IMG/VR virus record: IMGVR_UViG_3300024999_000086 | Location: 8,109-72,108 of that record | Length of the DNA stretch: 64,000 nucleotides | Strand: one strand, 5' to 3' | Source of the DNA: a virus | Shown here: positions 2,442 to 49,820 of the stretch, one piece after another | Layout of the letters: each line of letters begins with the position of its first letter | Position numbering within the stretch: position 1 is the first letter of the stretch | Position numbers and translations under genes: made by a program | Notes under the pieces: generated by a model | Databases searched by the model: none | Seen by the model: only the letters and a program-made list of their open reading frames with translations | What the model was told of the DNA's origin: nothing

Positions 2442-2442
2442 T

Positions 2443-4023
2443 ATGAAAGTCATAAAGCCTATCGCGGTTACGGATGCAACCCTGTATGGGTGTTCAGAGC
2501 CTGAAGATGACTATGCTGCCTGGGCAATTGGGACGACCTATGGTGCCGGGGACAAGGTTATAGTTCTCAGTACGCACAAGATCTATGAGTCTCTGCAGGC
2601 GGCAAACACCGGAAACGATCCGACGACCGCAACAGACTGGTGGCTGGATCTGGGCCCGACGAACCGCTGGAAGATGTTTGACAAATCAGTGGGGTCGGTC
2701 ACTGCCGCGAATAACTTCCTGATCGTGATGGTCAAACTGACCGATGCTGATTTTGTGGACTCTCTGGCTCTGCTGGATATCGTTGCCAATCACGTAGTAA
2801 TTGAACTCTTGGACGATGCTGTTTATGGGACGATGAGCCCAAGTGCCTCGGCCTCAGCAACAGCGAGCCCGTCAGGGGCAGCAAGTTTGAGTTCTTCTGT
2901 GTCGTCTAGCCCGACGACAAGCCCCTCGAGTAGCGCGTCTTCGAGCCCGAGTACATCAGCGTCTTCGAGCCCAAGCTCTTCGCCATCGTCCAGCCCGACG
3001 ACGAGCCCGAGTACATCAGCGTCTTCGAGCCCGAGTTCTTCACCTTCGTCCAGCCCGACAACGAGCCCGAGCGCTTCAGTATCAGGGAGCCCGACGACTA
3101 GCCCAAGTTCGTCAGAAAGCGCAAGCCCGAGTTCTTCAGCCAGCAGCAGTTTGAGTGCTTCAACCAGCCCGTCTGGAGGACCAAGTGTCAGCGCCTCTGG
3201 GGGGCCCAGCACCAGCTCCAGCCTGTCAAATAGCCCATCAGCATCGCCGAGTGCCAGCGGGGGCAACTATCTGACCGACGGTGACGGGAACTTCTTGGTT
3301 GATGGGGCGGGCAACAGGTTGAAAGACGGCGGCGTCGGGGATGACGGTGGGGCCTCGTCTTCAGCTTCGTCGAGCGTATCCTCAAGCCCGACGACAAGTT
3401 TGAGTTCTTCTGTGTCGTCTAGCCCAACAACAAGCCCGAGCTCGTCAGAGAGTGCAAGCCCAAGTTCGTCAGCCAGCGCCAGCCCTTACCCGGTTGGAGT
3501 GCTCTGGCACTATGAGACTGATTTGATATCTGCTCCGGATGAGACTGACAATGACTGGTATCAATATTTCTTCTCAGCACTGGAGAATCTCGAAGATTAT
3601 TTGCTTCTGAATATGCCGACTTACACCAATGCAATCCTTAAAGTTACTCTAACCGGGACGACTGTAGAGGTGGGGACGTTCGCATTTGGAAAGTCAGTTT
3701 ACATTGGGGAGACTCAGTGGGGGCTGCAGTTGGGTATACTGGACTATTCGACAAAAGAGACTGACGACTTTGGGGTGACTTCTGTTGTTGAACGGGTTTA
3801 TGCCGACAAGATGGAGTGTGATCTTTTTCTGGAACACAGCATGGTGAGGATGGTTAAGAAATTCCTTTCAAGTGTCAGGGCTACCCCCTGCGTTTGGATG
3901 GGCACCGAGGTCAGTACATTTTCCGAGTTAACAATTGTTTATGGATTCTATAAGAATTTTGATATAGTACTACAAGATTACGGTGGGAGTATCTGCTCTC
4001 TCGAAATCGAAGGTTTAACTTAA
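2443..4023 (+). CDS. Tail-tip protein (post-TMP family, N-terminal carbohydrate-binding-like 'AW..GTTY..GDKV' motif) with inserted Ser/Pro/Thr tracts
   Basis: ATG 2 nt after the TMP stop. N- and C-terminal parts resemble the gene that typically follows TMP ('NRWKMFD', 'DYSTKETDDFG', 'VYGFYKNF'). Low-complexity inserts at ~2833-3264 and ~3352-3486. Confidence 0.75.
   Translation: MKVIKPIAVTDATLYGCSEPEDDYAAWAIGTTYGAGDKVIVLSTHKIYESLQAANTGNDPTTATDWWLDLGPTNRWKMFDKSVGSVTAANNFLIVMVKLTDADFVDSLALLDIVANHVVIELLDDAVYGTMSPSASASATASPSGAASLSSSVSSSPTTSPSSSASSSPSTSASSSPSSSPSSSPTTSPSTSASSSPSSSPSSSPTTSPSASVSGSPTTSPSSSESASPSSSASSSLSASTSPSGGPSVSASGGPSTSSSLSNSPSASPSASGGNYLTDGDGNFLVDGAGNRLKDGGVGDDGGASSSASSSVSSSPTTSLSSSVSSSPTTSPSSSESASPSSSASASPYPVGVLWHYETDLISAPDETDNDWYQYFFSALENLEDYLLLNMPTYTNAILKVTLTGTTVEVGTFAFGKSVYIGETQWGLQLGILDYSTKETDDFGVTSVVERVYADKMECDLFLEHSMVRMVKKFLSSVRATPCVWMGTEVSTFSELTIVYGFYKNFDIVLQDYGGSICSLEIEGLT
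2833..3486 (+). repeat. Coding low-complexity SPTT/SPSS/SASS repeat tracts
   Basis: Four-residue periodic Ser-rich translation. An identical 31-bp copy occurs at 2882-2912 and 3395-3425, and CGAGCCCGAGTACATCAGCGTCTTCGAGCCC occurs at 2942 and 3002. Confidence 0.95.
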
Positions 4024-4034
4024 AGAGGCCCAGC

Positions 4035-4835
4035 ATGACTATCTCAGCCCTTCCATCAGCCCCAAATAAAAATACTGACAGTGCTTCAGCGTTCAACACA
4101 AAAGCGAATGCCTGGGTCGCAGCATTATCAACGTTCGTGACCGAGGCCAACGCCTTGGAGGCCAACGTCAACAGTCGAGAGACTCTGGCGACTGCCGCGG
4201 CGGTAACTGCTTCGGCAGCCTCAGCGACGGCGACGACAAAAGCCGCAGAATCGTTGGCCAGTGCGGCGACGGCTGTGGCTGCTCCGGGGACGAGCGCGAC
4301 GAGTACGACCAGCCTGACGATTGGTACCGGGTCGAAGTCACTGACGATCCAAGCAGGGAAATCTCTGGTCGTCGGGATGAAGGTTATCATCGCCTGGACA
4401 AACTCTCCCACGTATTATATGTATGGGACGATCACAGCCTACAATTCTACCACTGGGTCACTGGTGGTCATGTCTGAGGCATTCAGTGGCGCAGGGACAA
4501 CTTCAGCGTGGACGATCTCCTTGACGGCGCCGGCAGTTGGTCTTGGCCTCGGGCAGACTTGGCAGGAAATGGGGAGTGCCAGGGCTTTTAATACAACATA
4601 TACAAACACAACAGGCAAACCACTTGTGGTCTCTGTTACTGGGTACACAACAGATGAAAATCCATTAGCCGGGTTGTCTTTGTATGTTGATTCTACGTTG
4701 CTTGGAATATCAGCACAAGTAAGTACTATTACAACACACTATGTAGTGATTTCAGGTATAGTGCCAATTGGGTCAACATATAGAGTAACAGCTTTAGGTT
4801 CTATATTCAAGACTTCTTGGGCCGAACTGCGATAA
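4035..4835 (+). CDS. Tail fibre / receptor-binding protein
   Basis: Ala/Thr-rich stalk followed by the C-terminal 'GLGQTWQ..SARAFNTTYTNTTGKPLVVSV' domain typical of phage fibre tips. The 3' end is lower in GC. Confidence 0.75.
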   Translation: MTISALPSAPNKNTDSASAFNTKANAWVAALSTFVTEANALEANVNSRETLATAAAVTASAASATATTKAAESLASAATAVAAPGTSATSTTSLTIGTGSKSLTIQAGKSLVVGMKVIIAWTNSPTYYMYGTITAYNSTTGSLVVMSEAFSGAGTTSAWTISLTAPAVGLGLGQTWQEMGSARAFNTTYTNTTGKPLVVSVTGYTTDENPLAGLSLYVDSTLLGISAQVSTITTHYVVISGIVPIGSTYRVTALGSIFKTSWAELR

Positions 4836-4870
4836 CAATGAAATCTACAACAAATAGTCGGAGAACCGCT

Positions 4871-5734
4871 ATGAAGAGATTTTTAATAACAGCAATACTC
4901 TTGCTGACGGCTTGCAGCACAGCCCGGGCCGACTTTGACATCACGGCCTTGCCTGATCACACGGCGCCGGCGGCAGCAACTGACGGGCTGGTGGTCTACA
5001 AGTACTCTGCGGCAGAGGGCAGCCGAGTGCAGGAGGTCAAGGCCTCGGCCGACGCCGGGCAGTGTCTGTCGGGGACGTGGACCTGGGTTGATTTTCAACC
5101 GCTTGACACTTCCCTGACTCAGATCTCCGGGTTGACGCTTTCTCAAGGCGACATCCTTTACTATGACGGATCAGCGATCACGAACCTTGGTCCGGGGGAC
5201 GCCGGCAAGCTGTTGCAGACAAACGGGGTTGGGGCCAACCCCACTTGGACAAGTGCAATCGCCTTGGATGTTTTTGGTTTGCCAAACGGTGTGGCCCCGA
5301 CGGTTGACGAAACGGGCGAAACCGCGATCGACACCACCAGCGATCAACTTCTTTATTACGGTGGGGCGAAGCGAGTACTGACGTATAAAGAGCCACTATG
5401 CATCACCGTTGAAAATCTCGCTGCTGCCGATGATGATTATGCCTATTTTTCCTGGCCTTATGCAGTGACCATCACTGGGCTGTGGTGCCATTATCGAGGT
5501 ACTGGTTCAACTCCGGCGACAATCACCTTGGAAGACGGGGCCGGGAATGCAATGACTATTACCGATACAGCCGCGACTTGTGCGGCATCAACAACGACTG
5601 CAACACCAAAGACTGTCACAGCGGCAAATGGGCTTACGGCATATGAGATGCTGGCTTTTAACGTAACAAATGCAGTGAGCCCGGAGACAGACGAATATAC
5701 GATATGTGTCAGTTATACTGTGGATGCCGACTGA
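4871..5734 (+). CDS. Signal-peptide-bearing tail-fibre-like protein
   Basis: N-terminus MKRFLITAILLLTACSTARA; fibre-like 'QGDILYYDG...GKLLQTNGVGANPTW' motif; beta-rich C-terminus. Confidence 0.6.
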   Translation: MKRFLITAILLLTACSTARADFDITALPDHTAPAAATDGLVVYKYSAAEGSRVQEVKASADAGQCLSGTWTWVDFQPLDTSLTQISGLTLSQGDILYYDGSAITNLGPGDAGKLLQTNGVGANPTWTSAIALDVFGLPNGVAPTVDETGETAIDTTSDQLLYYGGAKRVLTYKEPLCITVENLAAADDDYAYFSWPYAVTITGLWCHYRGTGSTPATITLEDGAGNAMTITDTAATCAASTTTATPKTVTAANGLTAYEMLAFNVTNAVSPETDEYTICVSYTVDAD

Positions 5735-6477
5735 TGAAGTATTTATTGGCAGCAGTCCTTATACTGCTCACATGGTCAGACAGTTTTGCGGCGAGCGGTA
5801 TTCTCGTGCGCAGGAGTACCGCTTGTACTACTCCTGCGAATGGGGATGAGCTGAGTGAGGGCTTTGAGGGAGGCTACGAAGCCGCGGGTTGGACAGAGAC
5901 AGTAGGCACAGGCGGGACGCTGACCGAGAATTACACTCTGACGGGAACTGCGCCGGCAGGGTCATGCCTTGTGGGCCTTTATTCTGCAGCCATCGCCGGT
6001 GCAAGTAACATGACTTACGCCACCTGGGACGCAGGAGCACCAATATCTAGGGCCGGAAGTCTTGATATTACCGGGAGTATCAGGGTCAACTCAAGCACAC
6101 TCCCCGCCAACGACGATGCACTTACTGTTCTGCACTGGAGTAACTATAGCACCAGTGATGCTGCTGGCTTGGCAATGGTTAAACTCATCGACGATAACGG
6201 AACGTTGATGATTAAAGCTCAAGGCGCAGGGAATAGCGCCGAGGTTGCTATCACAACTGGAATTTGGTACAGTTTTGTTCTGCACCTTGATGGTACCGCG
6301 GCAAGTTCGTATTTTCAGATAGACGCCGGAACAACTTGCGATGCTGCTAGCGAATGTACTTTCGCCAGATTTGATTCTGCTGATGGGCAGTATTTGCACA
6401 CTGGGCCTGGATATCAACTCGATACAGACGAAGCAGCCGCAATAGAATGGGGGGGCATATGGGTAAATACGCCGTAA
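5734..6477 (+). CDS. Signal-peptide-bearing beta-sandwich (lectin/LamG-like) protein
   Basis: N-terminus MKYLLAAVLILLTWSDSFA; 'EGFEGG..AGW' and 'TTGIWYSFVLH' patterns; paired Cys; TGATG coupling with the upstream gene. Confidence 0.55.
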   Translation: MKYLLAAVLILLTWSDSFAASGILVRRSTACTTPANGDELSEGFEGGYEAAGWTETVGTGGTLTENYTLTGTAPAGSCLVGLYSAAIAGASNMTYATWDAGAPISRAGSLDITGSIRVNSSTLPANDDALTVLHWSNYSTSDAAGLAMVKLIDDNGTLMIKAQGAGNSAEVAITTGIWYSFVLHLDGTAASSYFQIDAGTTCDAASECTFARFDSADGQYLHTGPGYQLDTDEAAAIEWGGIWVNTP

Positions 6478-8531
6478 TTTTTCTGATACTCCTTTTTCCA
6501 TCATTGGCTCTGGCCTATTCGCCTGTTGCCAGGTTCGACGTAGTTCCATACCAGCGGATTGAGTATGGGGCTTCACTTAATGTCGGAGTTGCGGCATTTT
6601 CTAAGCCAGGGATTGCATCAGTTGACTTTGTTGCATCTGGCCAGGGGTATAGTGGAGGAACAAAGACAGCAACCTCCATGACCTTGAATTCGACCACGGA
6701 TACCTGGGAATACTGGGTTAATTTCCCCGCCTCTGAGTTTACCGGAAACGGGGCTATTACTATCACCGCCACCGTTACCGACAACGAGGCCAATGAAAGA
6801 GTATTGACCCTATCTTTGCTGGTCTATGGGGCCTCTGCTTTCACTCCAGTGACAGCTTGGGTTGATCCAGCGGGCAACAATACTACCTGCATGGTAAACG
6901 ATGAAGGGGCACCATGCTTGACCGTAGCCGGGGCAATAACCAAAATCCAAGCGGCAAATGGCGGCGTTTCGGACGGTGCGATTATCTATCTCGAGGAGGG
7001 CACTTACTCGGTAGCCTCTACATCAGCAAGCACGTCAAGCCAATGGTTAACAATCACGAAAGACGATACTGCGGCAGTTGCAAATGTAATAATCAATACT
7101 GGACAGATAACAACCGGGTATCTCAAATATGATAGCGTGACTCTGCAAAGTCTGGGCAGTGCCCTGTATGTCGCCAATAGTAGTTCAACACGGTTATGGA
7201 CGAATAGTTGTAGAAGAATTGGTTCTGGAAGAGGTACTGTCAATACAAACCCAGTGCATCTCAGCGACGAGAACAATCATTATAGTACTAATGACTACAC
7301 CTATGATGCTGACTATGCCTATAGGAAGGCAGCATTGGTCAGAGGTGCCACAATCTCGTTTATTGGTAATGATGTATTTGAGAATACACCTTTTATTGTC
7401 AACTGTACTGCTGATGATGTCGATAATATTGACAACCCGTCATGGCACGCAGATGCATTTCAAACTTTTACAGGGACAACGCTTGCCCCTCCGGATAACA
7501 GAATTGTCTATAATTACAAGGCAACAGACTTACATTATGAAGCTATTTTTATGCGGTCTGATACTGGAACTGCAACGGACAACGCATTTGTAAATGTATT
7601 TCTTGAGATGCGCGATCCTTGTACAGTTAATGAAACTGGCAGCTGTGTTTTTACTGATTTTCAGCTTTATTACAACTGGGATCACCTGATAATGTGGAAC
7701 AATACATTTATAGGTGGACATAGCACAATATCACCAACATCAACCCTTACAAATGTTTCCTGGGTTGGTAATGTTTTCTGGCAGTTTGCTCAAGACACAG
7801 ACATCAGCAACCTGGCTATTACTCAACTTGCGAATGGGAATGCTGGTGGGAACGAGGTTTTGTATAACCATTATGAGTATGTAAAACTTGAGACAGGTGA
7901 GTGCACACCAAATAGTAAATTTACACAAGCGGGGTATACCTGCCCAAAAAATTATACAAAACGTCCTGACTCTGGAGCAACCGCTACCTATTCAACAGGC
8001 GGGGGGGTAACTGACGGCGACTATACATCGGAAACCTTTACTTATCCTGTTGGTGACACCCTGACATATAAATTCTCTCCACGAGTTCCAGTTGATATTT
8101 ACAACGTAGCTCGCGGAACCTTGTCCAGCATTGGGGCCGTAGAGCCGGTGTTTTCTGGGCCCGTTCGTTCAGCCGGTGCCCCGTCTTCGACGGTCAGTTA
8201 TGCGGCAACGACTACGATATCATTGTTTACTGCAACAACCGCAACATGCAAATATGGGACTGTAGCAGAGACTGACTATAGTTCAATAGCTAACACGTTT
8301 GAGTCTACTGCATCTCAGTGGCATACTCAAACAGGGGTGGCTGTGTCTCCAGGAACTAACACCTTTTATGTAAGATGTACTGATGGATCTCATGAAAATC
8401 TTACTGACTATGTTATCAGCTTTAATATGTTGAGTCAAAGTTCTGCCCGAGTGGGATTAAGTTTGACTGGTACCGGGAAGTTTACTCCCTCAACGATAGG
8501 AACCGGGAAGTTGATAATCTCAGCGCCTTAA
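6459..8531 (+). CDS. Large signal-peptide-bearing protein with Ig-like and parallel beta-helix (pectin-lyase-like) regions
   Basis: N-terminus MGKYAVIFLILLFPSLALA; 'IIYLEEGTY', 'HADAFQ', 'WNNTF' and 'SIGAVE' are beta-helix hallmarks; low GC. Confidence 0.6.
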   Translation: MGKYAVIFLILLFPSLALAYSPVARFDVVPYQRIEYGASLNVGVAAFSKPGIASVDFVASGQGYSGGTKTATSMTLNSTTDTWEYWVNFPASEFTGNGAITITATVTDNEANERVLTLSLLVYGASAFTPVTAWVDPAGNNTTCMVNDEGAPCLTVAGAITKIQAANGGVSDGAIIYLEEGTYSVASTSASTSSQWLTITKDDTAAVANVIINTGQITTGYLKYDSVTLQSLGSALYVANSSSTRLWTNSCRRIGSGRGTVNTNPVHLSDENNHYSTNDYTYDADYAYRKAALVRGATISFIGNDVFENTPFIVNCTADDVDNIDNPSWHADAFQTFTGTTLAPPDNRIVYNYKATDLHYEAIFMRSDTGTATDNAFVNVFLEMRDPCTVNETGSCVFTDFQLYYNWDHLIMWNNTFIGGHSTISPTSTLTNVSWVGNVFWQFAQDTDISNLAITQLANGNAGGNEVLYNHYEYVKLETGECTPNSKFTQAGYTCPKNYTKRPDSGATATYSTGGGVTDGDYTSETFTYPVGDTLTYKFSPRVPVDIYNVARGTLSSIGAVEPVFSGPVRSAGAPSSTVSYAATTTISLFTATTATCKYGTVAETDYSSIANTFESTASQWHTQTGVAVSPGTNTFYVRCTDGSHENLTDYVISFNMLSQSSARVGLSLTGTGKFTPSTIGTGKLIISAP

Positions 8532-8635: not shown

Positions 8636-9307
8636 ATGGAACTTCAAGCCCCGTATCACTTGTTCGGAAATGTCCGAGGCAACAGCTATGTCAGGGTCGA
8701 CCCGGTCACCGGCCTTGTGACGTTCAAAGGGCTGGCCAGGCCTTATCTCGGGCTGTGGATTCCATTGACAGCCATGGAGCCGACGTCGGCCCCGGATTAC
8801 GACGCGACCAACTTCGGGTACCTTTTCCCGAACAACAGCACCACAGAGTTCCTGACCGCGAACATTGCCCTGGACCATGACTACGCCCCCGGGACGTCGC
8901 TTTATCCCAGGATACTCTGGCACCAGGCTGCAGCGACGCCCCCGGCGTGGAAGATCTCCTACCGGTGGTTGAATCCTGGTGAACAGGTGGGCGCCTTCAC
9001 CACGGCGACGGCAACCGGGCAGGAGTACACCTACATCCAAGGCACAATCCTGCAGACATCATATTTCCCGACTATCCCGGGCGCGGGCAAGAAGATGGGC
9101 AGCATTCTGCAGGTCAAGCTCTACCGCGACGACGCGGTATTGGCCGGCGATGCTCTGGCGATCGCCTTTGGCGTGTTCAAAAAGGTCGACAGCCTGGGGT
9201 CGCAGACGTTGACGTTGAAGAGTGTCCCGGGCGCCCAGGTGTCGTCGTCACCGTCAGCTTCAGCTAGCGCCAGCCCGAGCGCTTCACCATCAGCTTCAGC
9301 TTCCTAA
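8636..9307 (+). CDS. Putative virion beta-sandwich protein with C-terminal Ser/Pro/Ala tail
   Basis: AGGAG RBS; 'HDYAPGTSLYPRILW...QVKLYRD' motif; ends in SSSPSASASASPSASPSASAS. Confidence 0.6.
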   Translation: MELQAPYHLFGNVRGNSYVRVDPVTGLVTFKGLARPYLGLWIPLTAMEPTSAPDYDATNFGYLFPNNSTTEFLTANIALDHDYAPGTSLYPRILWHQAAATPPAWKISYRWLNPGEQVGAFTTATATGQEYTYIQGTILQTSYFPTIPGAGKKMGSILQVKLYRDDAVLAGDALAIAFGVFKKVDSLGSQTLTLKSVPGAQVSSSPSASASASPSASPSASAS

Positions 9308-9318
9308 GGGGGTAGCCA

Positions 9319-10056
9319 ATGAGTCAAGTATTGATTGCGCCGACAACGGCGGCAGCGGAATACAAGATGAAGATTCCGCAGAACCGGTTCAACATGACGA
9401 TCCAGGTCGACGCCAGCATCGGCGCCGCGGAGGTGGTTGAACTTAAGCAGTTGGATACGGATCAGCAGTGGCGGGCGATTGTTCTCGGCGGGGCACCCCT
9501 GGTCCTGTCAGCGTCCAACACTCAAATCAGCTTCACCGCGACGAATCTGATCAAACTGGTGAAGCCCATAACTGTTGCGGCCGTCGGCGTTCAGTTGCTG
9601 TCTGATCTTGGGTTTGGTGAGAACGAGGCATCTGATAGTGCCAGCACGTCAGCATCGAGCAGCGCGTCCTCGAGCCCGAGCTCAAGCGCGTCCTCAAGCC
9701 CGACGACTTCAGCTTCGTCCAGTCCGACGACTTCGCCGTCCTCGAGCGCTTCTTCAAGCCCGAGCGCTTCGCTGTCCGGCAGCGCTACGACAAGTCCGAG
9801 TTCGTCTGCGAGCGCAAGCCCGAGCGCTTCACTGTCCGGCAGTGCTACGACGAGCCCGAGTGCTTCAGCTTCAGGCAGCCCGACGACCAGTGCGAGCTCA
9901 AGCCCGACGACAAGCCCAAGCTCTTCGGCATCGTCCAGCCCGACGACTAGTGCGAGCTCTTCAGCTTCTTCGAGCCCGACGACTTCAGCTTCAGGAAGCC
10001 CGACGACAAGTCCGAGTTCTTCGGCGAGCGCTTCTCCGTCAAGTTCACCGTCTTGA
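9319..10056 (+). CDS. Small globular domain plus ~140-aa mucin-like Ser/Pro/Thr tail; putative virion decoration protein
   Basis: A ~100-aa beta domain is followed by continuous SPTT-SPSS-SASS repeats (9631-10053) up to the stop. Confidence 0.7.
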   Translation: MSQVLIAPTTAAAEYKMKIPQNRFNMTIQVDASIGAAEVVELKQLDTDQQWRAIVLGGAPLVLSASNTQISFTATNLIKLVKPITVAAVGVQLLSDLGFGENEASDSASTSASSSASSSPSSSASSSPTTSASSSPTTSPSSSASSSPSASLSGSATTSPSSSASASPSASLSGSATTSPSASASGSPTTSASSSPTTSPSSSASSSPTTSASSSASSSPTTSASGSPTTSPSSSASASPSSSPS

Positions 10057-10071
10057 TGAGGAGAGACTCTT

Positions 10072-11547
10072 ATGCTGAGCGTGGTTATCCCATCCCGCAA
10101 TGAGCAGGGATATTTGGAGAAGACTATCGAATCCCTCTTGGCCAACGCCGAGGGGGAGATCGAGATTATCGTTGTGCTCGACGGCTGGCTTCCTGAGAAG
10201 CCAATTGAATTTCCAGTGAACGAGCGACAGCAAGTTCACTGGATTCACAACCCGGAGGCGATCGGGCAGCGGCAGGCGATCAACCAGGCAGTCCGGACGG
10301 CTAAAGGCAAGTACATAATGAAGCTGGACGCGCACTGTGCGGTCTCGAAGGGCTTTGACTTGATCTTGGCCAGAGACTGCGAGTACGACATGACGATGAT
10401 TCCCCGGATGTACAACCTGGACGTCGTGACTTGGCAGCCGAAGCTGCACAAACGCACGGACTATATGTACATCGGCCTGGTCGACGGCAATCTCCGGGCC
10501 TGCTATTACAAGAAGCAGCCTGACAACAACAAGATGATCGACGACACCATGTGCTGCATGGGGCCCGGGTTCTTTCTGCACTTGGAGAGGTTCTGGGAAC
10601 TCGGCGGCTGTATGGAGGAACACGGCGGCTGGGGGCAGCAGGGCGTGGAAGAGGCCTGCAAGGCAGCACTCAGCGGGGGCCGGATGGTGGTCAACAAGAA
10701 CTGCTGGTTCGCTCACTGGTTCCGCGGCGGCGGGGTGCCAGAAGGCCACAAGAAAGGGTTCCCCTACCATATGAGCCAGCACTCGGTCAATATCGCTCGG
10801 GCTTACAGCAACGACCTCTGGATGAACAACAAGTGGCCGAAACAGGTCCGGACCTTCCAGTGGCTCCTCGACAAATTCAATCCCCCCGGGTGGAGCAAGG
10901 AAGCTATGGCCAAGATCGGGAATCCCGCGGAAGTTTCAGTGGCGCCGGCCTCCTCGCCGGCACGGGCGTTCTTCAATCACATGATGTCCGGGAATAAGAT
11001 GCCTACGTGGATGGGTTACACGGTTATCAAATATCCCAACGACCTCATCCTTTATCAGCAGAAACTCTTTGAGCAGAAGCCAGACGTCTTGGTCGAGGTC
11101 GGGACCCACAAGGGCGGCTCGGCCCTGTTCTTTGCTCAGATGATGGATTTGATCGGGCACGGGCGGGTCATCTCAATCGATCGGTCGCACGATAAATACC
11201 CTCTGCCGCAGCATCCGCGGATCACTTATTTGACCGGGAGGTCGACGGCGACGGAGACGTTGGGAAAGGTCAAGGAGATGGTGAACGGGAGTTCCGTGAT
11301 GGTCGTGCTGGACGGTGATCACAGCCGAACGCAGGTGAAGCGTGAGCTGGTACGGTATTCCGACATCGTCACGCAGGGCCAGTACCTCGTCGCCGAAGAC
11401 ACGGTGATGGGGGAGATGGGCATGCCTAATAACCCGGCCGAGGCCGTCGAGTGGTTTCTGAAGAGGACCGACAAAGTTCGCCGAGAGCGGCCGGAGGAGC
11501 AGTTCATGTTCTCCTGTAACAGTGGGGGCTGGCTGAAACGGATATGA
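10072..11547 (+). CDS. GT-A glycosyltransferase (GT2/GT27-like, DxH motif) fused to a CmcI-family O-methyltransferase
   Basis: N-domain: SVVIPSRNE, EIIVVLDG, KLDAHC, WGQQGVE, AHWFR. C-domain: WMGYTVIKYPNDL, KPDVLVEVGTHKGGSA, VVLDGDHS, YLVAEDT (cephalosporin hydroxylase / rhamnosyl O-methyltransferase family). Confidence 0.85.
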   Translation: MLSVVIPSRNEQGYLEKTIESLLANAEGEIEIIVVLDGWLPEKPIEFPVNERQQVHWIHNPEAIGQRQAINQAVRTAKGKYIMKLDAHCAVSKGFDLILARDCEYDMTMIPRMYNLDVVTWQPKLHKRTDYMYIGLVDGNLRACYYKKQPDNNKMIDDTMCCMGPGFFLHLERFWELGGCMEEHGGWGQQGVEEACKAALSGGRMVVNKNCWFAHWFRGGGVPEGHKKGFPYHMSQHSVNIARAYSNDLWMNNKWPKQVRTFQWLLDKFNPPGWSKEAMAKIGNPAEVSVAPASSPARAFFNHMMSGNKMPTWMGYTVIKYPNDLILYQQKLFEQKPDVLVEVGTHKGGSALFFAQMMDLIGHGRVISIDRSHDKYPLPQHPRITYLTGRSTATETLGKVKEMVNGSSVMVVLDGDHSRTQVKRELVRYSDIVTQGQYLVAEDTVMGEMGMPNNPAEAVEWFLKRTDKVRRERPEEQFMFSCNSGGWLKRI

Positions 11548-12014
11548 AAAAATCAGTCCGACGATTCGTCAAACAACAGGTAGACAGGCTGGCCGCGGCC
11601 GGCGACTGTCTGGAGATCGGATCCTACGATGTTAACGGCAACCTCCGGCAGATCCTAGCCCACACCAACTACACCGGACTTGACATGCGCGAGGGGACCA
11701 ACGTCGACGTCGTCGCCAACAGCAACGACTTGCCCTTTCCGGATAACCATTTCGACGTCGTCGTCTGCGTCGAGACCTTTGAACACGACAAGTTCTTCTG
11801 GAAGACCGTAGCTCAGATCAGACGGGTCCTTCGTCCTGGCGGAGTGGTGATTTTAACGGCGCCGAGTATCGACTTCGGCATCCACGAATATCCCAGTGAT
11901 TACTGGAGGTTCACCGAGGCCGGCCTGAAGTCCCTTATCGAAGACTGGTGTGGGGAGATCGTTTCACATCACCATGACCGAGCAGCATTCGTTGCTGGGA
12001 GAAAATATGTCTGA
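11544..12014 (+). CDS. Class I SAM-dependent methyltransferase (Methyltransf_11-like)
   Basis: LEIGSYDVNG, LPFPDNHFDVVVC, RVLRPGG and HEYPSDYWRF motifs. Confidence 0.85.
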   Translation: MKKSVRRFVKQQVDRLAAAGDCLEIGSYDVNGNLRQILAHTNYTGLDMREGTNVDVVANSNDLPFPDNHFDVVVCVETFEHDKFFWKTVAQIRRVLRPGGVVILTAPSIDFGIHEYPSDYWRFTEAGLKSLIEDWCGEIVSHHHDRAAFVAGRKYV

Positions 12015-13626
12015 TATTAGCTTGATATATTACACAGATAACCAACTTGACCCGTTTCTTTTCGCAAAGTGCCAAGAGAAACTTCTTGAGGCTGCCCAAG
12101 GAAAGCGAATCATTTCTGTTTCGCAGAAGCCTCTTGACTTTGGCGACAACATCTGCGTTGGGAATATCGGCCGGAGCCACGAGTCGCTGTTTACCCAGGT
12201 CCTCACCGGGGCAAAAGCGGCGACCACGAAGTATGTGGCACTGGTCGAGCACGACTGCCTGTACTCTCCGGAGCATTTCAACTGGCAGCCACCAAACGAC
12301 TTTGTTTTCTGGTACAACGTCAATCACTGGTTCGTGCAGTGGGGCGGTAGCAACACTGGGCAGTACAGCTACCTGCGGCGGAAGGTCCTGTCCAATCTGA
12401 TTTGCGAGCGTAACCTCTTGATCGAGGCCGTGGAAGAGAAGTTGGCAATTCTCAAGCAAGGCGCCCAAATCCGAAAGGGGTTGCCTGGGGCTTGTGAGCC
12501 TGGGGTCTGTTCAAATGAAGACGCCTTCGTCGGGATTGTAGGTAAGGACTTGGGTAAGGTCCCTGGAGACTATAGAGCCAGGGGCTTTTCAACGGTGGTG
12601 CCAAACCTTGATATCCGGCACGGGCAAAACTTCTCTGGCGGGCGGATTGCCAAGAAGAAGTGCTACTCCCTGCCGTACTGGGGGAGCTTCCACTCTGTAA
12701 TGGGCGTGATCCCTCCCGGTGAGTGGTATCAGGAAGCGACTGTGCATGGCGTTCAGATGCCCACTCGTCGGACGAACGATACGAACGAGAAGCGATGGCA
12801 CAAGTTCATCAAGCCTCTGATTGAGGGCCCCATAGTGGGGAGGATGACTGACTTGGGCTGCAACGCCGGCTTCTATTGCCGAAAGTTTTCTGATCTGGGG
12901 TTCAAAGCAACCGGGGTCGAGCGCGACCCTGAGGTCCTTCGTCACAACTACTGGTGGGAAGAGCACGAGCCCAAGGGTGTCAGAGTCGTCGAGTCCGATA
13001 TCAACGACTATTCTCCATCCTGCTCTGATTATGTTCTCCTTGCCAACGTCCACTACTGGCTGACGCCGGCACATCTGCAGACGTTGGTGCAAAAGCTCAA
13101 CGACCGAGCTTTGAACGTGATCTTGATCGGGAGGTACAACACGGCCTCGGTTCACAAGTCGCCGGCTGACCTGCAGTTTTTGCGGAAGCTCTTCAGAGGT
13201 TGGCAGGAGAAACGAGTGATCAAGGGCGTCAAGCACTTTTCGGTGTTGTTCCGGAACCCGACGTTGATCTCAAGAAGTGTGGATGATCTGTTCACGAAAC
13301 AGCAGTTTTTTAAGAGCAGTCGCTTTTTACCTTCATATTCTCGGTTGATTGATGATATACTGGAAGGCAAGAACGGCAATTATCAGGATTCCGAGTATCA
13401 CAAATATCTTCTTTGGCGAGGATTTAAAGACAGTACTGAACTTCTCAAGCGCCACGTCGACCTTGTCGCCAGTATTCAACAGGAGGGGACCAAGGATCCG
13501 CTGTTGATCGGGCGAGTGGTCAATGGTAAATACGAGCCGGACAGACTGGTCGACGGCGACCATCGGCTGATCGTTGCAAAGAAACTGGGTATTCAAAATG
13601 TTATTTGTCGTGTCGTCAAACAGTAG
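12007..13626 (+). CDS. Glycosyltransferase-like / SAM methyltransferase / ParB-Srx-like fusion
   Basis: N-terminal 'IYYTDN...YVALVEHDCLY' (GT-A-like); middle 'DLGCNAGFY..GVE' (methyltransferase motif I); C-terminal 'SIQQEG.KDPL...LVDGDHRL' (ParB/Srx). Confidence 0.7.
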   Translation: MSDISLIYYTDNQLDPFLFAKCQEKLLEAAQGKRIISVSQKPLDFGDNICVGNIGRSHESLFTQVLTGAKAATTKYVALVEHDCLYSPEHFNWQPPNDFVFWYNVNHWFVQWGGSNTGQYSYLRRKVLSNLICERNLLIEAVEEKLAILKQGAQIRKGLPGACEPGVCSNEDAFVGIVGKDLGKVPGDYRARGFSTVVPNLDIRHGQNFSGGRIAKKKCYSLPYWGSFHSVMGVIPPGEWYQEATVHGVQMPTRRTNDTNEKRWHKFIKPLIEGPIVGRMTDLGCNAGFYCRKFSDLGFKATGVERDPEVLRHNYWWEEHEPKGVRVVESDINDYSPSCSDYVLLANVHYWLTPAHLQTLVQKLNDRALNVILIGRYNTASVHKSPADLQFLRKLFRGWQEKRVIKGVKHFSVLFRNPTLISRSVDDLFTKQQFFKSSRFLPSYSRLIDDILEGKNGNYQDSEYHKYLLWRGFKDSTELLKRHVDLVASIQQEGTKDPLLIGRVVNGKYEPDRLVDGDHRLIVAKKLGIQNVICRVVKQ

Positions 13627-13637
13627 CAGAGGTGAGT

Positions 13638-14321
13638 ATGTTTAAAAAAATAATTTTTCTTGGGCTTCTCTTCGTCGGCGTTGCCCCGGCTGTCTTGGCA
13701 CAGGGGTTCTCGACCCCGTTCGGGACCCAACCTGAGATAGCAATCAATACTGATTGTTCAGGGTTCACGACTGACGGCAAGTTATGCTGGGACAGTGATG
13801 ATGATGTTCTCTACGTCGGGAACGGAACGACAGCAGAGTTGGTTCCTGCCGGGCTTGCTTCGGCGCTGGCTGCGAACGGGGCAAACTGTTCCGCGGGGTC
13901 ATACCCGCTCGGGGTTGACGCCTCCGGTGCGGTTGAGGACTGCACCGCGGCGTTGACTGAAGCTGGAGCGAAGACCGTCGGCATCAACTCCCACACCGAC
14001 GCCACCGTGGTCCTGACCGCTGCCGATTGCTACGGGGATATTAACCTCAACGGTGATGATGACGCGATTGATTTCACCCTTCCCGCTGCTGCTGCTGGGT
14101 TGGCCTGTTGCTTTGACGCCAACGGATTTGCTCAGGTAATCACTGTAGATACAGCGGACGGCACGGACTCCAGTGTGCTTGGCGGCACGGCCCTGACTGC
14201 CGGGAACGCGATTGACACTATCGGCTCCGAGGCTGAACAATTTTGCCTTGTCGGGCGGGATGACTCAACCTGGATTGTTTACCCCGGCTCCGCATACCTG
14301 GCTGACGGAGGGGCAGATTGA
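13638..14321 (+). CDS. Signal-peptide-bearing fibre-like protein
   Basis: N-terminus MFKKIIFLGLLFVGVAPAVLA; 'LAANGANCSAGSYPLGVDASG' and 'FTLPAAAAGL' motifs. Confidence 0.55.
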   Translation: MFKKIIFLGLLFVGVAPAVLAQGFSTPFGTQPEIAINTDCSGFTTDGKLCWDSDDDVLYVGNGTTAELVPAGLASALAANGANCSAGSYPLGVDASGAVEDCTAALTEAGAKTVGINSHTDATVVLTAADCYGDINLNGDDDAIDFTLPAAAAGLACCFDANGFAQVITVDTADGTDSSVLGGTALTAGNAIDTIGSEAEQFCLVGRDDSTWIVYPGSAYLADGGAD

Positions 14322-16336
14322 TGAAAGCCGTGCTTCGCATAATCCTAGCCCTGCTGCTCCTGTGCAATTCTGCACAGGCGATGGTGCCGTACCAGTTGCC
14401 GGAACCGGACGTATTGTACGCTCCTTTCCACACCAATCTGTATTATTACAGCCTAGGAGCAAGAGGCACCGCCACCTTCACCCGAGGCAGCGCCCGAGTC
14501 TTCGAGGACTGGGAAGGCAACTACGTCCGCACCACCAACACCAACGAGGCCACGTTCAAAGCTCGGCGGGTAGCGAACCTGCTTGCTGCGGATTCGAGCG
14601 AGGATTTCTCGGTCGCGAGTTGGACGAAGTTCGGGGCGGCTACGGTTACAGGGACGAATGCAATAAACTTCCCGGATAATTATGGGGGTGTATCTCAAGC
14701 CATCTATGTCAAAAATACCGGACAAGTTTTTCGCTGGGCAGTTACTTTGAGCGGAAGTGGTACCACATCGGTAGTGCTATATAACACTGCAACTGGATAC
14801 ACTACTACTGCTATAGGTTCCAAGGCAGTAACTCTTTCAGCAACTCCGAAAAGATTTTCCGTTGTTGGAACGAGCATATATGCAGGCGGGGGCATATTAG
14901 CCTATATTATTCGCAATGGCAACACCGCCACCCAAGTCACCGCCACCAACGCAATGTTGGAGGAAGTCACGGGCCAGTCAAACGGAAATCCTTCTGAGTA
15001 CACCAGCACCCATCAATACTACGGTGGCCAGACCGTCAAGGGTGTCCAGTACCTCGCCTACGAGAACGGCAACACGGTAGACGCCAACGGAGTTGTAACC
15101 GAGGCCCAGGGCGCAGCGATACCCGATGCCCAGCTTACCGGATACCAGTATAACGGAGCTACGACGAACAAGCTTGCCGGTGCTTTCAATACCGTTGGGC
15201 CGGATATGCTGGGGAGTGAGCTTGCTTCTGGTACGTTGACCATTGGCAAGCGATACCAGATCACGGCAAGGACGGACGCAGATTTCACGGCTGATGGTGC
15301 TGCTGATAACGTAGTTGGCACGCAGTTTACAGCCACAGATACCACAGTCACCCTTGACGCTGGCGACAAGGTCAAGGAGATCGGCGCAGCCAACCTCGCA
15401 GGAACATTCGTCTCCGGCCTCGGCACAGGCGCACAGAATACCGCAGCAGCTACCGCAGCTATCCCCGGCCAAACTCACGGCGGGACCGGCTCAACCACCA
15501 TCACCAATGTCTCAGCGGTAATCACCGCAACCAACAAATACAAAAGATTAACCCCGGCTACCAAGTGGTACGTCACCACGGCTTCGGGCGGAGATGCCAC
15601 CGTGGACTTTACCGGGGCACTCTCAGCCGCAACGCATACCCTTTCCCTTGTTGCCTACGGGGCCACGGCAAGCGATGTGCTGACCCTTGGTACAAACACG
15701 GTAGCAGGTACACCGCAGACCGTCACCACTGCGCCCGTGCTGTACTCGCAGACCTTGACCGCGAACGCCAGCGATACCATGCGGCTGACCGTAGCGGATG
15801 GCGACACGATAACTTGGTGCCTGATGCAAGCTCAGACTGGCATCGTGGCCGACTCTCGCATAATCGTAGAGGGTGCCGCTGCGAGTCGGAGTGCCGATGA
15901 TTTACTAATAACTATTGCAGATGGCACAAGCTACAGAGCAAGAGAAGGAAAGATCAGCTACACACTTACCCCTGGATTTAATCAATCTAGTATTCCTGCT
16001 GCAACTGCCGCTGTTCGGCCGGTGAGTTTGACAGCAGGCAACTCGTTCTTTTACCTGTACGGGCCAACATCTGCAAGGATCACTGATGGAACGAATACAT
16101 TAACACAAGCAATTACACCATTAACAAGTGGAACATCTGTAGATATTGCATCAACATGGTCAACCACGAAGGCCAAAATGAACAACTATAATAGCGTTGA
16201 TGGTTGGTTGACAGCAGGCACTTACGACGGGGCGTTTACCCTAGGTGCGACATACAGATTCTTTTATTCGACTTCATACCCCGCCAGCCTCAAAAACCTG
16301 CGGGTATTAGGCACCGCTGATCCGGGAGGAATGTAA
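14321..16336 (+). CDS. Large signal-peptide-bearing Thr/Ala/Gly-rich fibre/lectin-like protein
   Basis: N-terminus MKAVLRIILALLLLCNSAQA; 'ATFTRGS', 'NLL..SEDFS..W' and 'ASRSADDL' motifs resemble phage head/tail fibre proteins. Confidence 0.6.
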   Translation: MKAVLRIILALLLLCNSAQAMVPYQLPEPDVLYAPFHTNLYYYSLGARGTATFTRGSARVFEDWEGNYVRTTNTNEATFKARRVANLLAADSSEDFSVASWTKFGAATVTGTNAINFPDNYGGVSQAIYVKNTGQVFRWAVTLSGSGTTSVVLYNTATGYTTTAIGSKAVTLSATPKRFSVVGTSIYAGGGILAYIIRNGNTATQVTATNAMLEEVTGQSNGNPSEYTSTHQYYGGQTVKGVQYLAYENGNTVDANGVVTEAQGAAIPDAQLTGYQYNGATTNKLAGAFNTVGPDMLGSELASGTLTIGKRYQITARTDADFTADGAADNVVGTQFTATDTTVTLDAGDKVKEIGAANLAGTFVSGLGTGAQNTAAATAAIPGQTHGGTGSTTITNVSAVITATNKYKRLTPATKWYVTTASGGDATVDFTGALSAATHTLSLVAYGATASDVLTLGTNTVAGTPQTVTTAPVLYSQTLTANASDTMRLTVADGDTITWCLMQAQTGIVADSRIIVEGAAASRSADDLLITIADGTSYRAREGKISYTLTPGFNQSSIPAATAAVRPVSLTAGNSFFYLYGPTSARITDGTNTLTQAITPLTSGTSVDIASTWSTTKAKMNNYNSVDGWLTAGTYDGAFTLGATYRFFYSTSYPASLKNLRVLGTADPGGM

Positions 16337-16910: not shown

Positions 16911-17501
16911 ATGCGTTTCCGCTTTAACTGCCTCCTGATAGCCGTAACATGCCTGACTGTATGGGCTGGCGGGCTTATCGGGCTGGCACGGGCAGAAGTC
17001 GTGCAGGGGTCATACTCTGAATATATCTGTGATAATGCATGGGACGTGTGGGCAATCAATGCCGGATATTACAACCGTCCGGAACGATACTACATCATCG
17101 CCCACGGCGCGCCGCAACTGTTCCGCCCGAACTGCGGAAGACCGGATATCACCCCTGACCAGATCAGCGGCTACAGCCTGGGGTTTTTCGCCGGGTGTGA
17201 TGCAATGTGTTCTAACGCGGACCATACTTTTGCTGAGTCGGTACCTGAATCGGTCGGCTACTGCAATATGTCCGAGTCGTCCTGTGATGGGTGCTGGATG
17301 GCAACAGTATCTTGGCAGGATACGTTTTACCGCAATGTGGACAGCCTTGGGGCAGGGGCGGCTTATAGCGCAGCGATGAACGCAGTGCCTTCCTGCCTGC
17401 CCTGTTTGAGGTATCACAAGAAGCGGGAGCCTGAGCAGGTGAATGAAACGCAGATTGTGATGACAACTATTATTGTTCCTTGGCTGATGAGGGAAAGATG
17501 A
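16911..17501 (+). CDS. Exported Cys-rich protein with a possible caspase/gingipain-fold His-Cys dyad
   Basis: Signal-like N-terminus, 'YYIIAHG' and 'FFAGC' motifs, hydrophobic C-terminal tail. Confidence 0.4.
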   Translation: MRFRFNCLLIAVTCLTVWAGGLIGLARAEVVQGSYSEYICDNAWDVWAINAGYYNRPERYYIIAHGAPQLFRPNCGRPDITPDQISGYSLGFFAGCDAMCSNADHTFAESVPESVGYCNMSESSCDGCWMATVSWQDTFYRNVDSLGAGAAYSAAMNAVPSCLPCLRYHKKREPEQVNETQIVMTTIIVPWLMRER

Positions 17502-17595: not shown

Positions 17596-18270
17596 ATGAA
17601 AATCCTACCGTTGATTATTGCGCTGTTGCTGGCGTGGAATTGTGATGCCTATGCACTTGGGAGGAAGCCGCCGCCACCGGAGCCGACCCCAATCCCAACG
17701 CCGCTCCCGGCCCCGGTGCAGGAAATCGTGATTGAGTACGGCGTCAGAAACGTTTTCAGTAATGAGGTCAATTTCCACTTCTCAAAGCCAATCGCGGAGT
17801 ATGGCCGGTTCAATTTGAACACTGCCGGGAAAAAATATGTAATAGAGGGAAATTACAAGGACAGCAATGTAGAGGTCCGCGACTCAGCCACTACCAAAAA
17901 GCTCGTTGTTATCGCTGGCCCTGCCTACGCAACCAAGGGGGCGAGCGTGGCCTACCCCTCGAAAGACGCACTGACCAAGCCGGAAGCCACGCCAACGCCT
18001 GAGCCGCAACCTGGACTCAGCCAGCACTTCCACCATTGGAACCCTGCGGCGGTGTGGAATGGGGTTGGGTTGGTCATGTGCCCAGACTCCCCGAAATACT
18101 CTGGCTGCACATTCAACGGCGAGGCTATGACCCTGCACGGTAAGGATAAGGGCCGCTGGGTCTGGGCGCAGTACTCGAAGAACAAGGGCAAGGGCGGCAC
18201 AATCATCTGTGACGGGACCAGATTTGAGGTCAAAGGCGGAAACGAAATGCAAAAGGGGGATTGCTGGTGA
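17596..18270 (+). CDS. Signal-peptide-bearing protein with Pro-rich linkers
   Basis: N-terminus MKILPLIIALLLAWNCDAYA; PPPPEPTPIPTPLP linker. Confidence 0.6.
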   Translation: MKILPLIIALLLAWNCDAYALGRKPPPPEPTPIPTPLPAPVQEIVIEYGVRNVFSNEVNFHFSKPIAEYGRFNLNTAGKKYVIEGNYKDSNVEVRDSATTKKLVVIAGPAYATKGASVAYPSKDALTKPEATPTPEPQPGLSQHFHHWNPAAVWNGVGLVMCPDSPKYSGCTFNGEAMTLHGKDKGRWVWAQYSKNKGKGGTIICDGTRFEVKGGNEMQKGDCW

Positions 18271-48764: not shown

Positions 48765-49820
48765 TCATATTTGACACAAGCCTCTTTCGAGGGCCGTCCC
48801 AGCCCCAAAATTGAGTACGTTGATCGCAGCATTCTGATCACGATCATGCAGAGATCCACACTCTTGACATACCCAATTTCTTACCGACAGTCCTGCCCAA
48901 CCTGTAGGTCCTGACAGGCACCCACAATTTGAACAGATCCTGGTGGAATTTTTGCTAGCAGGCTCGTCATACTGCGTACCGCCGATATGGCTACTCTTGT
49001 AAGCAAGCATTGCACGAAGCTGCCCGTGACCTGAACTTGTCACGCTTTTTCCAAATTTCTTAGCAATCCCTTTAATGTTATCTTTGCTGAAACGGATCAC
49101 AGTATTTTCAGCAACAAGTTTCCTGGAAAGTTTGTGATTCCGGTCTTTCCGTTGATTGGCAATTCGTTCATGGATTCTTGCCACGAGTTTCTTATCCTTC
49201 CCCCGCTGCGCTTGTGCCAGTCGTTTTGCTGAAGCTTCCAGTTCTCTGGGGTGCTCAACTTTCTCCCCTGTTGAGAATGTCAAGAGGCTTTTAAACCCGG
49301 GGTCAATCCCGATTTTTCCAAAACCAACCCGCTCAATTTCTTTCGGGGCAGCATCAATAAAAAGACACAAATGCCACCCGCTTGCCCTTTTTATGAGTCG
49401 CCCACATTTGATCCGCCCTTCGGGCAAGAACTGTTTGTGGAACCGGACCAAGCCCAGTACCGGCAACTTGACGTGGCTGCCCTCCGGGCATCGGATTGGA
49501 TCAGGAAAAGGGATCGACACCAGCTTGTTTCTCTGTCCTTTGAGTTTAGGTCTGCCGCCCTGTTTTCTGAAACACCGCTGCCAAGCTGCATGAACAGTGG
49601 AAAGCACCCCCTGAATACAATGCCCTGGAACCCCAACTTTTTTGGCATGGCCTGCCAAAAGATTCTGGAAATTCATGGGTGAATGATAAATCTTATCATC
49701 AGCATCTAGTTGGATCTTTCGCACTGCCCAGTTATAGACCCCGGTCAAGTGCCAGAGCCATTCGTCAAGTCTTTTTTCAAGCTTTACGTTTGGCCTGAGT
49801 TTGAGTTGTACTTGAATCAC
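48765..49820 (-). CDS. tnpB: TnpB-family RNA-guided nuclease homologue
   Basis: RuvC-I IGIDPG; Zn ribbon CSNCG/CQECG; RuvC-III HDRDQNAAIN; likely GTG start at 49820 with AAGGAG upstream. Confidence 0.88.
   Translation of the reverse strand: MIQVQLKLRPNVKLEKRLDEWLWHLTGVYNWAVRKIQLDADDKIYHSPMNFQNLLAGHAKKVGVPGHCIQGVLSTVHAAWQRCFRKQGGRPKLKGQRNKLVSIPFPDPIRCPEGSHVKLPVLGLVRFHKQFLPEGRIKCGRLIKRASGWHLCLFIDAAPKEIERVGFGKIGIDPGFKSLLTFSTGEKVEHPRELEASAKRLAQAQRGKDKKLVARIHERIANQRKDRNHKLSRKLVAENTVIRFSKDNIKGIAKKFGKSVTSSGHGQLRAMLAYKSSHIGGTQYDEPASKNSTRICSNCGCLSGPTGWAGLSVRNWVCQECGSLHDRDQNAAINVLNFGAGTALERGLCQI

Follow-up and report, generated by a model that had tools for sequence, protein, structure and literature searches.

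What does a tailed phage do with an enzyme that resembles the polypeptide N-acetylgalactosaminyltransferases (ppGalNAc-Ts) of family GT27 and that is encoded directly behind genes for proteins with long serine-rich tracts? The question is raised by positions 8636-13626 of a 64,000-nucleotide (nt) stretch, here called the window, which comprises bases 8109-72108 of IMGVR_UViG_3300024999_000086, a linear IMG/VR virus record of 72,108 bp with a completeness estimate of 79%. An initial annotation had read this region as a candidate mucin-type O-glycosylation system with sugar methyltransferases, encoded next to mucin-like virion proteins. Our computational analysis supports that overall reading, as the GT27 likeness and the co-occurrence of enzyme and tracts both agree with it, and we propose that the region probably encodes a cytoplasmic protein O-glycosylation cassette with which the phage decorates its own tail proteins and methylates the attached sugars.

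The first enzyme of the cassette, the fusion protein encoded by 10072-11547 (Table 1), is central to this proposal. Pfam places a GT2 glycosyltransferase (GT) domain at residues 3-138 (E 1.2e-17), and a PDB search with the single sequence gives only a faint match to ppGalNAc-T10 (E 0.052). When a profile of 70 homologous GT domains is used, the best 15 PDB matches are all ppGalNAc-Ts (E 1.5e-18 for 1xhb to 2.4e-11), followed by Toxoplasma GalNAc-T3 (E 1e-10), and the ppGalNAc-T alignments cover profile positions 2-246 of 267, i.e., the whole catalytic domain, whereas bacterial GT2 enzymes align only with the N-terminal third (about 100 positions). The AlphaFold model of the domain has a predicted local distance difference test (pLDDT) score of 91.8 and a predicted template modeling (pTM) score of 0.91, and in a Foldseek search of the PDB all 30 matches listed (ranks to 50) are ppGalNAc-Ts, with template modeling (TM) scores by query of 0.59-0.73 and identities of 16-20%. 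Both approaches put GT27, specifically, on top, which confirms the likeness that the initial annotation had seen.

The GT-A domain can be aligned over its full length with eukaryotic GT27 enzymes (1xhb, 2ffu, 2d7i), and it shares their DxH, the Trp-Gly...Glu of the Gal/GalNAc-T motif and the His-x-Phe-Arg metal-ligand segment. Residues D86, H88, E193, G202, G203 and H215 are invariant across the 70 sequences, and in the HMMER alignment with GalNAc-T1 D86-x-H88 corresponds to DxH (DAHC), E193 to the Glu of WGGENxE and H215 to the His of GHVFR. D86, H88 and H215 therefore align with the DxH residues and the third His, which are the Mn ligands in GT27. The motifs SVVIPSRNE, KLDAHC, FWELGG, WGQQGVE and AHWFR are present in the order in which they had been noted, although the spacings given for them do not hold literally: FWELGG and WGQQGVE are separated by 7 residues rather than 4, and GG and AHWFR by 10 rather than 6.

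The phage enzyme differs from eukaryotic GT27 enzymes in what surrounds the catalytic domain. Pfam finds GT2 and CmcI in 10072-11547 and no ricin-type lectin domain, the place of which is taken in the relatives by CmcI, a second GT or a ParB-like domain. There is also no membrane anchor in the first enzyme, in which the maximum hydropathy over 19 residues is 1.16 and the model starts with a beta strand at residues 2-8, and hence it is a cytoplasmic enzyme, in contrast to the type II membrane proteins of the secretory pathway that make up GT27. With neither lectin domain nor anchor, it is best described as GT27-like in its working and not as a proven GT27 member. The family assignment of its C-terminal part was correct in the initial annotation: residues 312-491 match PF04989 (CmcI) with E 3.8e-42 and 144.8 bits against a cut-off of 23.2, and the solved CmcI structure 2bm8 with E 1.7e-8. 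Family membership suggests that this domain may O-methylate the glycan.

Table 1. Features of the tail-gene region and their coordinates (window positions unless stated otherwise).
Feature	Coordinates	Strand	Evidence and remarks
Tail tube protein	record C1:831-2138, just upstream of window	+	PF18906, phrog_290; 31-aa C-terminal Ser tract; fourth tract carrier
Tape measure gene, 3' part	30-2441	+	PHROG tape measure families, E down to 9e-21; marks start of distal-tail block
Tail protein after tape measure, phrog_6278 family	2395-4023	+	phrog_6278, E 2.1e-68; two inserted Ser/Pro/Thr tracts
Tract 1 of 2395-4023	2827-3294	+	residues 145-300, 156 aa; 77 Ser, 15 Thr, 21 Pro
Tract 2 of 2395-4023	3385-3498	+	residues 331-368, 38 aa
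223-aa protein, beta-sandwich-like N-terminal domain and C-terminal tract	8636-9307	+	candidate acceptor
Tract of 8636-9307	9224-9304	+	residues 197-223, 27 aa, SPSA/SASA type, C-terminal
245-aa protein, N-terminal domain of about 102 aa and C-terminal tract	9319-10056	+	candidate main acceptor, directly upstream of enzymes
Tract of 9319-10056	9625-10053	+	residues 103-245, 143 aa; 77 Ser, 19 Thr (96 Ser+Thr), 17 Pro, 22 Ala
First enzyme (fusion)	10072-11547	+
ppGalNAc-T-like GT-A domain	10072-10926	+	residues 1-285
CmcI / rhamnosyl O-methyltransferase family domain	11005-11544	+	residues 312-491
Second enzyme, class I S-adenosylmethionine-dependent methyltransferase, 156 aa	11544-12014	+	Methyltransf_11, E 4.7e-13; phrog_32762, E 9.8e-18
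Third enzyme, three domains	11950-13626	+	Pfam, PHROG, model
Divergent GT-A-like domain	12007-12774	+	weak GT2 match
Class I methyltransferase domain	about 12850-13080	+	Methyltransf_11, E 2.9e-4
ParB/sulfiredoxin-like domain	13363-13623	+	C-terminal; PHROG ParB-like, E about 1e-3

The candidate acceptors are the proteins with Ser/Pro/Thr tracts. Such tracts had been reported for 2443-4023, 8636-9307 and 9319-10056, and the open reading frames (ORFs) and the tracts are located as claimed; the first ORF opens at 2395 and its true start is probably the ATG at 2443, since homologues align from residue 17. All six serine codons are used in the tracts, with 36 AGY against 41 TCN codons in 9319-10056, and Tandem Repeats Finder detects only imperfect periods of 12-96 nt in the tract DNA. 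The mixture of codon boxes and the imperfect periods indicate that tract composition is kept by selection at the protein level rather than by simple DNA slippage. Across the relatives the tracts have the same form, a Ser (or Thr) at every second residue with Pro, Ala, Ser, Thr, Val, Ile or Glu between, and their carriers are without signal peptides. The N-terminal domain of 9319-10056 is the same in a sister phage, where the tract is 171 amino acids (aa) long. In the Atlas, 9319-10056 lies closest to clusters of viral proteins 100-106 aa in length, of which one bears the name 'Virion protein' (score 0.90), and 8636-9307, for which Pfam and PHROG searches gave no match, lies closest to viral hypothetical proteins of 211-247 aa (TM score 0.86). 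These are leads only, and together with gene position they weakly suggest that the two are virion proteins. The tract-coding DNA is also spanned by long ORFs that lie on the opposite strand or in another frame, namely 2823-3266 (minus), 9591-10145 (minus) and 9575-10078 (plus), which are rich in Leu/Glu/Gly or in Arg/Ala and are low-complexity by-products, not genes.

The enzyme genes follow the last tract gene closely, as the initial annotation had recognized in describing a coupled three-gene enzyme operon within 15 nt of it. Gene 10072-11547 begins 15 nt past the stop codon of 9319-10056, 11544-12014 overlaps the gene upstream by 4 nt, which indicates translational coupling, and the likely start of ORF 11950-13626 is the ATG at 12007, giving an 8-nt overlap with 11544-12014. 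The plus strand carries the genes for the tail terminator, the tail tube protein, two tail chaperones and the tape measure protein at the start of the record, a distal-tail block that extends to about 16.3 kb of the window, and the large terminase, portal and head protease at 59.8-64 kb. The replication genes, including DNA polymerase A and a primase-helicase, are on the minus strand. This layout, in which the distal-tail block follows the tape measure gene, places the cassette in the late tail operon. The tape measure ORF starts at C1:3260 of the record, upstream of the window, and continues (L474, 3260-8299, open at its 3' end) to a total of about 2480 aa; a gene of some 2480 codons would imply a very long tail.

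The second enzyme is a small methyltransferase, and the third combines a second GT with a further methyltransferase and a ParB/sulfiredoxin-like domain. The N-terminal GT that had been proposed for the third protein does have a divergent GT-A fold: it matches no Pfam family and no PDB sequence, and its AlphaFold model (pLDDT 89.1) finds generic GT-A structures in Foldseek (E 1.8e-6 to 1e-4). In a profile search the C-terminal domain matches sulfiredoxin (E 6.6e-6) ahead of ParB (E 3e-5), and 10 of 28 copies match Pfam ParB_N, all under the cut-off and with a best E of 7.3e-4. It comprises a nucleotide-binding core of about 75 aa with one invariant Gly and one invariant Arg and has no DNA-binding part, and it lies inside GT/methyltransferase fusions in 28 loci (the window and 27 others). 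The same profile has weaker matches to the serine kinases SbnI (0.004) and SerK (0.56).

If the tracts are the acceptors, they should accompany the GT in other genomes, and the association is strong. Tracts were defined in this forward comparison by an alternating-[ST] regular expression with runs of at least 20 aa, and they were found in 59 of 83 viral GT loci and 36 of 68 GT loci in metagenome-assembled genomes (MAGs), as compared with 4 of the 120 random viral loci; for viral GT loci against random ones the odds ratio is 71 (Fisher p 1.6e-26). Tract density was 1911 aa per 100 kb in the related GT loci and 9.9 in the 120 random loci, none of which (0/120) contained the GT27-like domain. A first criterion (at least 50% S/T and at least 90% STPAG) had been replaced, first by one of [ST]P[ST] density and then by the regular expression, since 17 of 80 random high-GC loci were positive through wrong-frame junk. 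By a stricter criterion, 82 tract proteins were found in 68 of 153 loci, every one on the strand of the GT, with a median distance to the nearest cassette gene of 648 bp (interquartile range 120-1539), and 21 of the 27 loci with at least 6 kb of flank on both sides were positive. The carriers are mostly singletons in blastp clustering and their globular parts are mostly unrelated, and Pfam and PHROG searches with seven large tract proteins gave only hints of LVIVD, beta-helix and Cip1-like domains or PHROGs of unknown function. Tract-positive loci occur in 47 of 59 GT lineages (70% identity).

The converse search began with tracts. Most of what its pattern, degenerate DNA for (SPSA)x4, retrieved was TPTA linkers, giant-virus contigs or wrong-frame matches; a Ser-type filter left 22 of 120 loci, L363, a locus that has the GT, was added by hand to make 23, and 17 records were searched whole. 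The GT was present at E 1e-108 or better in 7 of these 17 tract-bearing viral records, 2 of which were already in the forward set.

Comparisons within single tail-protein families point the same way. In an alignment of the 2395-4023 protein with 40 homologues, a long tract (at least 78 aa) is found only in the window protein, P0121 and P0122, P0135 has a single run of 16 aa, and the tract-free homologues are mostly 298-322 aa long. Among 80 loci centered on such homologues (1.14 Mb), the GT27-like domain, the second GT and CmcI are found only in the locus of the sister phage, which is also the sole tract-bearing one, and the other 79 have neither tracts nor enzymes. Of 38 aligned members of the tail tube family PF18906, 10 have a Ser tract added beyond the conserved C-terminus, two of them at 27-28% identity. 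With 22 closer tube sequences as queries, six viral loci were obtained, three of which cover the relevant region: the sole record with a tract-bearing tube has the GT, and the two large records with a tract-free tube (74-75% complete) are both without it. The co-occurrence of the GT clade with tract proteins, which the initial annotation had suggested should be examined, is thus seen in the forward, reverse and within-family comparisons alike.

The enzyme family is large and its companions recur. The fused architecture gave 1985 matches, relatives were confirmed in 237 IMG/VR stretches, 530 clusters (50% identity) were found at E 1e-30 or better among 1.84 billion representatives, and the 68 GT loci in species-representative genomes are all from MAGs, many of which are labeled Patescibacteria. 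Deposited phages are different: among 50,697 records, neither a tblastn search with the GT-CmcI protein nor a distant-mode blastn search with the region found anything at 1e-5, and at E up to 1 there are only N-terminal, generic GT2 matches over 29-45% of the query. With the GT domain as tblastn query, no record covers 80% of it. No actinobacteriophage appears in the organism tally of the tblastn search against these records. Within 153 loci the GT27-like domain is accompanied by the second GT in 124, CmcI in 113, small methyltransferases in 40 and the ParB-like domain in 28, and it is fused to the second GT in 58 proteins and to CmcI in 37. A TOD1/MUCI70-like GT domain (PF04765, named after plant proteins) is found in 28 of the 153 loci, for example at L244:14711-15370, and sugar epimerase/dehydratase genes (15 loci) and DegT aminotransferase genes (12 loci) are further recurrent companions of the cassette. 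The gene tatC adjoins the cassette in 15 of the 68 MAG loci (L219, L221, L228, L229, L236, L244, L245, L247, L250, L252, L253, L256, L264, L267 and L270) and in none of the viral loci, and the tract proteins there are without signal peptides.

We propose the following sequence of events for the glycosylation of the tail. Late in infection, the structural operon would co-express at least four disordered alternating-Ser tract proteins, namely the tail tube protein, the tail protein after the tape measure, 8636-9307 and 9319-10056, together with the three soluble enzymes. The ppGalNAc-T-like GT-A domain, with its predicted metal site of DxH and His and its Gal/GalNAc-T-like motif, would place a first sugar from a nucleotide sugar on Ser/Thr of the tracts, the second GT-A domain might then extend the glycan, and the CmcI-family domain may, together with the two class I methyltransferases, O-methylate the sugars, which we consider the likelier substrate than the protein itself. 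Assembled virions would then bear a brush of glycans over the length of the tail and on the tail tip, with possible benefits in shielding, adhesion, protease resistance or stability. The order of the steps is part of the proposal, as is the choice of the tracts as acceptor. The genomic covariation with Ser tracts has a bearing on the acceptor only, and 'mucin-type' in the sense of GalNAc is unproven.

Several observations weigh against this proposal. Glycosylation of the tracts is itself a deduction, and similarity to GT27, at just 16-20% identity, does not on its own prove a peptide acceptor. Tract-free GT loci make up 24 of the 83 viral and 32 of the 68 MAG loci; most are short or truncated, and L056, L082, L224, L231 and L250 are tract-free with both flanks present. 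The GT family is absent from 10 of the 17 tract-bearing records searched whole, 7 of which are 11-38% complete. A provirus of 96% completeness, G004 (the record to which L301 belongs; loci L475-L478), encodes a protein of 1812 aa, 554 aa of which are tract, and it has four other GT2 genes and neither the GT27-like domain nor the second GT; tracts can thus exist without this enzyme family. The random control loci had a GC content of 0.59 against 0.45 and were not centered on tail genes, and the matched control centered on 2395-4023 has just one positive lineage behind it. The GT domains are mutually related (at least 40% identity, mostly one single-linkage cluster), so the locus counts are not independent events, and the association may in part reflect shared descent of a cassette-plus-tract module. 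Finally, the capsid gene is missing from the 79%-complete record.

These points have to be considered together with what else the cassette could do. If it built or altered a glycan of the host envelope (O-antigen, teichoic acid or capsule), in the manner of seroconversion or superinfection exclusion, the tracts would be mere flexible linkers that are common in the same lineages. The N-terminus of the GT has a weak PHROG match to a GtrB-like O-antigen conversion family (E 0.0066), related loci contain genes of sugar-nucleotide metabolism (epimerase/dehydratase genes in 15, DegT aminotransferase genes in 12), and both the tract-free viral GT loci and the tracts of G004 would be expected. Seroconverting GtrABC systems differ, however, in combining a membrane-bound polyprenol-phosphate GT (GtrB) with a flippase and a serotype-specific GT, and there are no membrane partners in this operon: transmembrane-like segments are absent from the three window enzymes and occur in 3 of 560 cassette proteins across loci, and the ten commonest co-occurring clusters include no flippase, polymerase or oligosaccharyltransferase family. 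The best full-length matches are the peptide-modifying GT27 enzymes, with polyprenol-phosphate GT2 enzymes matching only the N-terminal third, and the late tail operon contains the cassette, whose translation is coupled to that of a tract protein. The cassette also lies tightly adjacent, on the same strand, to tracts in non-homologous carriers, and the 79 tail modules without the GT are all tract-free. The absence of a membrane component and the covariation with tracts make an envelope function improbable. A variant closer to our proposal is that virion proteins are glycosylated outside the tracts, which would be spacers or hinges co-selected with the enzymes, e.g., to project a glycosylated or receptor-binding domain. 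Ser/Pro-rich linkers are common between domains, the tracts of 2395-4023 lie between two conserved domains and 52 of the 82 tracts are internal, yet the other 30 end their protein, and in the tail tube, 8636-9307 and 9319-10056 the tract is a C-terminal tail with no domain beyond it to be linked. In carrier clustering and the matched control, it is only together with the GT that tracts occur on non-homologous proteins, and GT27 enzymes act on just such unstructured Ser/Thr/Pro segments, and we therefore give this variant little credence.

The ParB-like domain raises the question of whether the cassette glycosylates and methylates the bases of the phage DNA, with that domain binding the DNA, and DNA-modifying phage GTs are well known, as passages of PMC12619734 relate. 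We consider hypermodification very improbable, given the position of the cassette, the lack of a hydroxymethylase-type gene and the nature of the ParB-like core. The domain is the small nucleotide-binding core with sulfiredoxin as its best match, the protein ends there with no further domain, and in 28 loci the core is part of a GT/methyltransferase fusion. The 79%-complete record has no thymidylate-synthase-like hydroxymethylase gene, the cassette is in the tail block and not in the opposite-strand replication module, and DNA modification would leave the covariation with tracts unexplained. Glycosylation of the tracts therefore remains the reading that we prefer.

How does such a tail-decorating cassette compare with known systems? 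The likeness to eukaryotic GT27 extends to the presumed acceptors, which are unstructured tracts rich in Ser/Thr/Pro, although here they are Ser-dominated alternating repeats and mucin domains are rich in Thr/Pro, and the phage enzyme has a CmcI domain or a second GT fused to it where GT27 enzymes have a lectin domain. The relatives found here are likewise in phages and MAGs and not in eukaryotes. Mycobacteriophages are described in PMC12619734 and PMC12363180 as using their own GTs to glycosylate capsid and tail tube subunits at the C-terminus. The phage studied here would be similar in encoding its own GT and in having, on its tail tube protein, a C-terminal tract as putative acceptor. The mycobacteriophage systems differ in that their GTs have no sequence relation to this one detectable by tblastn in the deposited phage records, and in the present phage, which is uncultured, several tail proteins bear long repeat tracts as putative dedicated acceptors, and the cassette has three methyltransferase domains and a ParB/sulfiredoxin-like domain in addition. 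To our knowledge, the only phages so far shown to glycosylate their virions with enzymes of their own are a few mycobacteriophages, for which Freeman et al. in 2023 reportedly described this (Che8 gp110, Corndog gp38 and Myrna).

Two further systems resemble the cassette in part. The chlorovirus PBCV-1, a eukaryotic virus, makes N-linked capsid glycans, and its A064R protein unites a pair of GT domains with a sugar methyltransferase domain; the likeness would lie in GT-A enzymes that a virus encodes, that are cytoplasmic and that glycosylate a protein of the virion, and the second GT domain of the window matches the A64R structure 2p6w (2p6w/2p73) weakly (Foldseek E 4.6e-5, TM score by query 0.34), at the level of a generic GT-A fold only. 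Gram-positive bacteria have serine-rich-repeat adhesins whose long Ser-x repeats receive O-glycans in the cytoplasm from dedicated enzymes, GtfA/GtfB, which are encoded beside the substrate gene, and tract units such as SASA, SESA and SVSA are closer to these repeats than to the proline/threonine/serine (PTS) domains of mucins. That initiating enzyme has a GT-B fold and its substrates are exported by an accessory Sec system, in contrast to the GT27-like GT-A initiator and the phage tail proteins without signal peptides described here. The glycosylation of phage virions is not new, and as far as the literature was searched we did not find a GT27-like family, an alternating-Ser acceptor module or a methyltransferase-rich cassette described. 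Full-text searches, with subscription papers and supplements outside their reach, found neither GT27-like phage enzymes nor GT-linked Ser-tract tail proteins described.

If the proposed function is correct, the family would extend virion glycosylation to a large uncultured set of phages, with a different type of enzyme and an easily recognized acceptor module, and it would change how the tail-fiber and tail-tube surfaces of environmental phages are modeled with respect to adsorption, stability and recognition by hosts or grazers. The enzyme and tract would be a testable pair for cytoplasmic bacterial O-glycosylation, which would be useful for glyco-engineering, and the prokaryotic-virus relatives could help in tracing the origin of GT27. 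A broader speculation, to which we attach rather low but not negligible weight, is that uncultured tailed phages and the bacteria of their MAG bins, many of them Patescibacteria, hold a large prokaryotic sister family of GT27 that works with Ser-rich tracts. Were this true, eukaryotes would not be alone in the mucin-type scheme of O-glycosylation, in which a soluble GT-A initiator works on long disordered Ser/Thr/Pro repeats and a glycan brush results, the prokaryotic system might predate or have seeded the eukaryotic one, and phage tails coated with methylated O-glycans would be common in nature, though unseen in cultured phages.

Two minor features of the record may also be mentioned. Seven late-block proteins that flank the cassette (window 4817-5734, 5704-6477, 6447-8531, 13605-14321, 14318-16336, 16911-17501 and 17596-18270) have no Ser tract and no Pfam or PHROG match, and they have hydrophobic N-termini that are signal-peptide-like or lipobox-like, which is unusual among tail and fiber genes. 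In the early/replication region, the minus strand carries at window 48765-49904 a TnpB / Cas12f-like ORF with OrfB_IS605 and Cas12f1-like TNB domains.

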